In this document: positions 7,113-7,402 of the stretch, in pieces | Layout of the letters: each line of letters opens with the position of its first letter | Position numbering within the stretch: the first letter of the stretch is position 1 | Assembly: GCA_038826135.1 (NCBI GenBank) | Contig: JAWBON010000025.1 | Location: forward strand, 1 to 8,848 | Length of the DNA stretch: 8,848 nt | Direction: 5' to 3' | Source: Candidatus Odinarchaeota archaeon | Lineage (GTDB): Archaea > Asgardarchaeota > Odinarchaeia > Odinarchaeales > Odinarchaeaceae | Notes under the pieces: generated by a model | The model's input: the letters and a program-made list of their open reading frames with translations, nothing else | The model's database searches: none | Told to the model about the DNA's origin: nothing | Translations under genes and position numbers: made by a program

Positions 7113-7120
7113 TTTATATA
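7113..7120 (+). promoter_or_regulatory. TATA box TTTATATA of the tRNA gene
   Basis: Consensus archaeal TATA 33-40 nt upstream of mature tRNA position 1. Confidence 0.65.
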
Positions 7121-7167
7121 ATAATGGGTTTTTTATGAGTATTGATTAATATAGCGGGGTGGGGTAG

Positions 7168-7192
7168 GCTACCGTTAATAAGGTGGGCCTAT
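7168..7192 (+). other. tRNA intron 1, position 15/16, 25 nt
   Basis: hBHBh': TG(7160-61)/CA(7194-95); central helix GGGT(7162-65)/GCCT(7187-90) with two G:U pairs; bulges AG|G and AT|T; outer helix CTACC/GGTGG (5 bp). Confidence 0.8.
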
Positions 7193-7199
7193 TCAGGAG

Positions 7200-7213
7200 A
7201 CCTTTGGCTTGAA
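7200..7213 (+). other. tRNA intron 2, position 20a/21, 14 nt
   Basis: Central helix CAGG(7194-97)/CTTG(7208-11); bulges AG|A and AA|A; outer helix CC/GG closing a TTT loop. Confidence 0.82.
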
Positions 7214-7230
7214 ATCCCGCGGGGCTCATA

Positions 7231-7247
7231 AAGAGAGCCCTGGAGAA
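7231..7247 (+). other. tRNA intron 3, canonical position 37/38, 17 nt (relaxed BHB)
   Basis: Removal restores CTCATA|ACCCCG. Central helix CTCA/GGAG has one A.G mismatch; bulges TA|A and AA|A; outer helix only AG/CT. Confidence 0.85.
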
Positions 7248-7255
7248 ACCCCGAG

Positions 7256-7281
7256 ACAAGCACGAATAGTACTTGCGGGAA
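7256..7281 (+). other. tRNA intron 4, position 45/46, 26 nt
   Basis: Perfect central helix CCCG(7250-53)/CGGG(7276-79); bulges AG|A and AA|A; outer helix CAAG/CTTG. Confidence 0.88.
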
Positions 7282-7307
7282 ATCGATGGTTCAAATCCAT
7301 CCCCCGC

Positions 7308-7337
7308 ACAGAATTATAGAACATGATTCTGGGGGAT
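7308..7337 (+). other. tRNA intron 5, position 71/72 in the acceptor stem, 30 nt
   Basis: Central helix CCCC(7302-05)/GGGG(7332-35); bulges GC|A and AT|T; 9-bp outer helix CAGAATTAT/ATGATTCTG. Removal gives CCCCGC|TACCA, restoring U72, A73 and CCA. Confidence 0.85.
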
Positions 7338-7367
7338 TACCAATGTCTCCTAAGTGGCGTATGCCAA

Positions 7368-7389
7368 CCCCGCTACCAATCCCCTGCTA
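7368..7389 (+). repeat. Two tandem downstream copies of the intron-less tRNA 3' end
   Basis: 7368-7380 CCCCGCTACCAAT equals spliced 7302-7307 + 7338-7344 (13/13). 7379-7389 ATCCCCTGCTA equals mature positions 63-73 with one substitution (10/11). Confidence 0.8.
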
Positions 7390-7393
7390 AAGA

Positions 7394-7402
7394 TTCTTTT
7401 TT
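7394..7402 (+). terminator. Oligo-T terminator candidate (TTCTTTTTT) for the tRNA transcript
   Basis: First T-run downstream of the tRNA; lies after the 3'-end repeats and before the convergent DUF35 stop at 7415. Confidence 0.5.

Follow-up and report, generated by a model that had tools for sequence, protein, structure and literature searches.

In archaea, nested pre-tRNA introns are arranged such that the last BHB forms only after the others have been removed, according to the sections of PMC3978253 and PMC3728597 that summarize Sugahara 2007 and Tocchini-Valentini 2009. In Cyanidioschyzon merolae, the order of removal from multi-intron tRNAs follows motif stability, and the 37/38 motif, which has the weaker fold, is always last (PMC3728597). 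Intron-rich tRNA genes with several non-canonical introns have also been reported in Atabeyarchaeia and Freyarchaeia, with up to four introns per gene in the available part of the table of PMC11291895; this number and the three given in PMC4033280 are the largest intron counts per tRNA gene reported in these sources. Our literature search, outside which several primary papers lie, returned no description of an intron that hides its own BHB with a strand taking the place of the 3′ anticodon strand. In the papers searched, tRNA introns that leave in a set order are described, and a built-in self-lock is not.

The locus analyzed here is a five-intron initiator tRNA (tRNA-iMet) gene of a Candidatus Odinarchaeota archaeon, for which we predict that intron 4 leaves before intron 3. 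With the nested introns, as far as the sections cited above describe them, it shares BHB introns, presumed removal by EndA, and an order, which is required there and predicted here. Unlike the nested introns of the Thermofilum pendens type in those sections, the bases of the intron-3 and intron-4 motifs (BHB3 and BHB4) are contiguous in the primary transcript, and the cost of BHB3 does not fall on intron-4 removal; the order would thus be a folding bias caused by a competing helix, whereas that of nested introns is a covalent dependence. The gene would resemble the C. merolae system more closely in its independent BHBs, an order set by accessibility, and a late 37/38 intron, all of which are predicted in silico here. 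It differs in that it is an archaeal gene with five introns in which an 8-base intron strand makes the weak substrate, whereas no masking strand is described in C. merolae (PMC3728597). The Atabeyarchaeia and Freyarchaeia genes are similar as Asgard multi-intron tRNAs, and no analysis of removal order or of a masking helix was found in the available text of PMC11291895.

The window is the whole stretch of 8,848 nucleotides that was analyzed (contig JAWBON010000025.1), and the features of the gene are the following:

7113-7120, + strand: TATA-like box 5′ of the tRNA gene, with TTTATATA or a near match here in L001-L004 and L101; putative function
7153-7342, + strand: tRNA-iMet gene of six exons and five introns, from ARAGORN on the spliced product
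7153-7167, + strand: exon 1, positions 1-15, from ARAGORN on the spliced product; identical in 8 Odinarchaeia genes
7168-7192, + strand: intron 1 (15/16), whose central strand GCCT also pairs, in a slipped register, with 7166-7169, hiding the BHB
7193-7199, + strand: exon 2, 7 nt, D loop
7200-7213, + strand: intron 2 (20a/21), a relaxed motif without an outer helix
7214-7230, + strand: exon 3, positions 21-37, with the anticodon CAT at 7227-7229
7220-7227, + strand: positions 27-34, the target of the intron-3 decoy
7231-7247, + strand: intron 3 (37/38), a weak BHB with three central pairs plus an A35.G mismatch and a 2-bp inner helix
7235-7242, + strand: decoy strand GAGCCCTG within intron 3, with AGCC at 7236-7239
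7248-7255, + strand: exon 4, positions 38-45, in which C40-G43 (7250-7253) pair in the anticodon stem and also in the intron-4 central helix
7256-7281, + strand: intron 4 (45/46), with a perfect central helix (CGGG at 7276-7279) and no outer helix
7282-7307, + strand: exon 5, positions 46-71
7308-7337, + strand: intron 5 (71/72)
7338-7342, + strand: exon 6 (U72, A73, CCA)
7345-7351, + strand: trailer element GTCTCCT, whose complement at 7195-7201 lies in exon 2 and the first bases of intron 2
7367-7378, + strand: trailer copy of the acceptor 3′ strand, pairing 8/8 with positions 1-8
7397-7402, + strand: T-run, a likely terminator judging from its sequence

Removal of the introns at 15/16, 20a/21, 37/38, 45/46, and 71/72 restores a canonical tRNA. 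The spliced product, 78 nt long, folds into a cloverleaf that has A1-U72 and the initiator G-C pairs, and ARAGORN calls it tRNA-Met(CAT); the exons are identical across 8 genes. A spliced-alignment script found the same five junctions at 73 bits, with negative scores for control windows; ARAGORN and Rfam on the unspliced window gave no match at this locus. In the strict or relaxed BHB motif, whose two 3-nt bulges are each cut behind their second base, the 4-bp central helix is fully paired (4/4) in introns 1, 2, 4, and 5, and 3/4 paired in intron 3. For intron 3, junctions at 36/37 or 38/39 gave no better central helix on inspection, and a division into two tandem introns was rejected because they would be too short (9 and 8 nt). 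As the gene is single copy in the assembly and its exons are invariant, intron 3 must be cut. The T-run, as the likely terminator, would place the trailer inside the transcript.

The near group comprised the window gene and five five-intron orthologues (L002-L004, L101, and L102; six genes in total), and two six-intron genes (L005 and L006) represented the sister family. Two unrelated genes with 37/38 and 45/46 introns (L009 and L016) and a set of 68 distinct introns at 37/38, taken from initiator genes that lack a 45/46 intron, completed the sample, L090 and L092 counting as without this intron and L009 as with it. A metagenome scan for genes with both introns added one further locus only (L016), a 400-genome scan of the phylum added no lineage to those already sampled, and synteny was absent on the contigs of P0004 and P0005.

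Several features of the sampled genes were observed in passing. The sister-family tRNA-iMet genes (G005:C63 and G004:C39) have the five introns found here and one in the T loop (59/60). The 45/46 introns of L016 and L009 each include a copied T arm, almost exact in L016, which points to a possible birth of the intron by local duplication. In the 30-nt initiator introns of L047, L077, and L089, which are of the Thorarchaeota type, nucleotides 1-16 make a perfect hairpin and a TGAG central helix, so that tandem introns at 37/38 are conceivable there. In L090 and L092 (Thermofilaceae), the initiator tRNA sequence ends after the T loop, which we take to be expected from the permuted tRNA-iMet known in Thermofilum pendens.

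Using ViennaRNA, the free-energy cost of forcing each BHB was calculated in each intermediate at 37 and 65 °C (costs in kcal/mol throughout); such nearest-neighbour models take no account of tertiary structure, modifications, proteins, or the binding of the enzyme. The three pairings on which the original prediction was built were all found, namely, C40-G43 (7250-7253) with the intron-4 CGGG at 7276-7279 (4/4), 7221-7227 with 7235-7241 (7/7), and 7215-7220 with 7275-7280 (6/6). The pairing of the intron-3 helix stood as claimed and its length of 7 bp did not: since C27 (7220) also pairs with G7242, it is an 8-bp helix (7220-7227 with 7235-7242), seven of whose pairs are Watson-Crick. The helix exceeds chance, with 0.1-0.15% of shuffles of the intron's 10 middle bases attaining an 8-bp decoy. 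It is present in essentially the whole ensemble of each intermediate holding intron 3 (cost 0.0-0.3), and the modelled costs agree with the earlier proposal that intron 3 hides its own weak BHB.

The bases AGCC (7236-7239) have a role in the decoy fold only; with BHB3 formed, they would lie unpaired in a loop. None of the four differs among the six orthologues, whereas intron 3 does vary at its free positions 1, 4, and 17, and introns 1, 4, and 5 show almost unrestricted variation in their interiors. This conservation is suggestive only, the six orthologues being close kin with only four distinct intron-3 sequences; the exon side of the decoy is invariant, and therefore no compensatory change is demonstrable.

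With both introns present in the window, BHB4 cost 0.1-2.0 kcal/mol versus 7.0-10.9 for BHB3 (37 and 65 °C), and the gap was similar in all six near-group genes. The intron-4 motif is thus 6-11 kcal/mol more accessible than the intron-3 motif in the folding models, which makes removal of intron 4 before intron 3 likely. In a path model of all 32 intermediates, with rates proportional to Boltzmann accessibility, intron 4 preceded intron 3 in >99.9% of paths whatever the trailer assumption, and the order originally predicted was accordingly reproduced by the model (P above 0.999). We consider it probable that intron 4 leaves before intron 3 in most molecules. The mutation of GAGCCC that had been proposed as a check was run in silico: when AGCC was changed to AAAA or TAAT, the BHB3 cost fell to about 2-5 and roughly equalled that of BHB4 once the trailer was gone, so this four-base change largely abolished the modelled order bias. 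In these calculations, the 4-before-3 bias rests on the four bases AGCC at 7236-7239.

Concerning the whole precursor, introns 4 and 5 were open (0.4 and 0.5) and introns 1, 2, and 3 were masked (7.0, 8.7, and 7.8), and intron 1, not intron 3, was last in 50-70% of modelled paths at 37 °C. In the window, 7166-7169 pairs with 7187-7190 in the slipped register that hides the intron-1 BHB, and GCT, the first three bases of intron 1, is invariant in the six near orthologues. Other introns in this genome for which splicing is likewise required also had high BHB costs (eMet, 10.6; Arg-TCG, 8.3; Tyr, 8.2), and cost may therefore not track rate.

The enzyme that would act on these motifs was sought in the host genome (G000) and five relatives, each of which has two EndA paralogues. 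The host EndA alpha subunit aligns gap-free to A. pernix EndA across the specificity loop and keeps the K44 lysine, and the genome encodes an (alpha-beta)2-type endonuclease with an L1 loop, the type able to cut relaxed motifs. An (alpha-beta)2 EndA in Asgard archaea and the role of the specificity-loop lysine have been described (PMC5829648). The alpha-subunit gene is split over two overlapping contig ends (the starts of G000 C48 and C72), which is an assembly break and not two genes.

On balance, we lean towards the reading that intron 3 locks itself and that the anticodon intron is cut late, after intron 4, as the folding models predict. Judging from the order of the sequence, GAGCCCUG would fold back on positions 27-34 during transcription, as a local 8-bp hairpin formed before C39-G43 exist. 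This hairpin would hide the intron-3 BHB and, as a side effect, leave C40-G43 free for the CGGG of intron 4, so that the broad-specificity (alpha-beta)2 endonuclease would cut introns 4 and 5 early and intron 3 late, intron 5 being opened by the trailer and so presumably an early substrate. Loss of the competition from intron 4 would not release the lock. We infer that release in vivo is most likely once the other introns are gone, when the native L-shaped fold (D-stem/anticodon-stem stacking, G15-C48, G18/G19-T loop, and variable-loop contacts) and enzyme binding could pull C39-G43 onto C27-G31. Tertiary folding of the tRNA body and the binding of the enzyme, both of which lie outside the model, would most plausibly supply the missing 7-9 kcal/mol. 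Several tRNA tertiary contacts bridge the places where introns 1, 2, and 4 lie, and this is the only route by which a truly obligatory order could arise. The purpose of the lock may be, for example, to prevent an initiator tRNA that is still unfinished from forming a usable CAU anticodon arm.

The self-locking of intron 3 could be part of a larger design. The trailer at 7345-7351 masks the intron-2 motif, with a BHB2 cost of 5.8 with the trailer versus 0.5 without it (minimum-energy fold), and the match of the trailer strand to exon 2/intron 2 is conserved in the orthologues, reaching 10 bp in L102; this suggests that intron 2 waits for trailer removal. The precursor might then be a programmed lock cascade that begins with introns 4 and 5 open. 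Intron 2 would stay masked up to the removal of the trailer, intron 1 would be masked by the slipped helix, and intron 3 would be masked by the decoy up to the folding of the tRNA body. The last part to be freed would be the anticodon arm with its initiator G-C pairs, as a quality check on the initiator, in a design common to Thorarchaeota. We regard this wider proposal as tentative and rather doubtful.

That the decoy is a by-product without functional weight, the enzyme and the tertiary fold capturing both motifs in no fixed order, is an explanation with some basis in the constraints on these introns. Any intron at 37/38 needs a GAG-like sequence to pair with C32-C34, and pyrimidine runs readily pair with the G-rich initiator strand. 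In L078, which carries the identical 8-mer GAGCCCTG, and in L096, the GAGC that starts the decoy doubles as half of the intron's stem, and in the sister family, CTCTG, which is needed for the normal BHB, supplies five of the eight pairs; equally costly motifs are also found in many spliced introns. However, the shuffle rate of about 0.001 and the invariance of the four decoy-only bases argue against such a by-product, as does the near group, in which BHB3 was weakened (the A35.G mismatch) while the decoy was strengthened. The decoy strands of Thorarchaeota, moreover, vary mostly between G-C and G-U pairs, and we consider the by-product explanation unlikely. In favour of the self-lock, 17 of the 68 distinct initiator introns from genes lacking intron 4 carry an 8/8 decoy against positions 27-34; Thorarchaeota records account for 12 of these 17, and L078 with its identical 8-mer is one of the 17.

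The decoy may alternatively be kept mainly as a folding helper of intron 4, shielding the G-rich 27-31 so that C40-G43 finds CGGG, with the late removal of intron 3 as the price. Without the trailer, intron 3 dropped the BHB4 cost from 4.1 to 0.1, and only 0.3% of shuffled introns did as well as the real intron 3 (0.08). Eight distinct introns 3 from genes with a 45/46 intron were tested, and each lowered the BHB4 cost by 2-5 kcal/mol in its own gene with the other introns spliced and the trailer absent. The decoy is strongest in the intron-4-bearing lineage, and the trailer shows that the gene uses helper strands.

The host genome provides natural controls for this helper role. The spliced-alignment script recovered 40 tRNA genes, as computational parses, and doubtful class II and low-scoring parses were left out of the cost comparison. 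Six genes have an intron at 43/44 to 46/47 that invades the anticodon stem and no anticodon-arm intron, and the motifs of these lone variable-loop introns cost 1.6-6.3, bracketing unaided intron 4 (4.0). No comparable decoy was found in the seven other genes of the genome with 37/38 and variable-loop introns, which have 2-5 Watson-Crick pairs versus 7 here, and Thorarchaeota retain the decoy without intron 4. Thus, the decoy follows the initiator anticodon intron and not intron 4; a helper strand would co-occur with the intron it helps and be needed for its motif, and the decoy does neither. A folding helper as the main reason for the decoy consequently seems improbable, and the original suggestion of intron 3 as a needed guide for intron 4 is not supported by the same observations.

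Most of the approximately 40 tRNA genes in G000 carry one to four BHB introns, and ARAGORN misparses many of them. The elongator tRNA-Met (G000 C5:12808-12986, minus strand) has four introns, at 30/31, 37/38, 45/46, and 59/60.

The original prediction went further, with intron 4 as a block on intron 3 and the introns as mutual strand-exchange guides. BHB3 costs 6.7-10.9 kcal/mol with or without intron 4; without it, the cost in the window is still 6.7-10.0 and the decoy remains in the ensemble, so that no systematic rise is due to intron 4. The overlap at C40-G43 is real but involves only the outer helix of BHB3, the central helices of BHB3 and BHB4 being free of overlap, and the exclusion is not strict because the host enzyme must already cut motifs without an outer helix (introns 2, 4, and 5). 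Intron 4 was also said to free G10-U13 for intron 1; the BHB1 cost is 7.0 with or without intron 4, since its rival is its own slipped hairpin, and intron 4 is predicted to be gone before intron 1 in >98% of paths. The suspicion that the match of GCGGGA to the D-stem is partly a by-product of the repeated CCCG proved well founded, as the match is fully explained by the intron-4 motif: CGGG pairs with C40-G43, and the CCCG there is repeated at positions 23-26; the leading G closes the intron-4 stem, and the last A is the bulge base. In the orthologue L102, which has GAGGGA, the D-stem match is broken.

In the sister-family genes, both sites are occupied, with a perfect TGAG central helix and a near-canonical BHB3, and the BHB3 and BHB4 costs lie within about 2 kcal/mol, predicting no order; hence, the lock is not needed for such an architecture. 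Two genes of the host genome suit the idea of mutual exclusion better than tRNA-iMet does in the folding models: at 37 °C, with the variable-loop intron present, the 37/38 motif costs 9.5 rather than 2.9 in Pro-GGG (G000 C8:28780-28891) and 7.5 rather than 4.8 in Lys-TTT (G000 C7:2249-2380). An obligatory order through competition for C40-G43, with intron 3 helping 4 and 4 helping 1, is favoured by the C40-G43 overlap, the lower BHB4 cost given by intron 3 without the trailer, and the trailer's modelled help to intron 5 (BHB5 cost of 2.9 to 0.4 with the trailer), and intron-4 removal would become a true prerequisite if lock release needs tertiary contacts of positions 45-48, but with the trailer attached the intron-3 help largely vanishes (0.4 vs 0.4, window), and as loss of intron 4 does not unlock intron 3 or help intron 1, the decoy occurs without intron 4, and the sister genes are unordered, we find both "obligatory" and "mutual guides" unsupported and this mechanism very unlikely.

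If the self-locking of intron 3 is not borne out, the gene would be one more multi-intron tRNA with a likely but unremarkable splicing order. If it is true, some archaeal tRNA introns would carry sequence that times their own removal, which would give a concrete function to tRNA introns, whose function is an open question. The gene encodes the tRNA with which every protein begins, and its host belongs to the archaeal group closest to eukaryotes.
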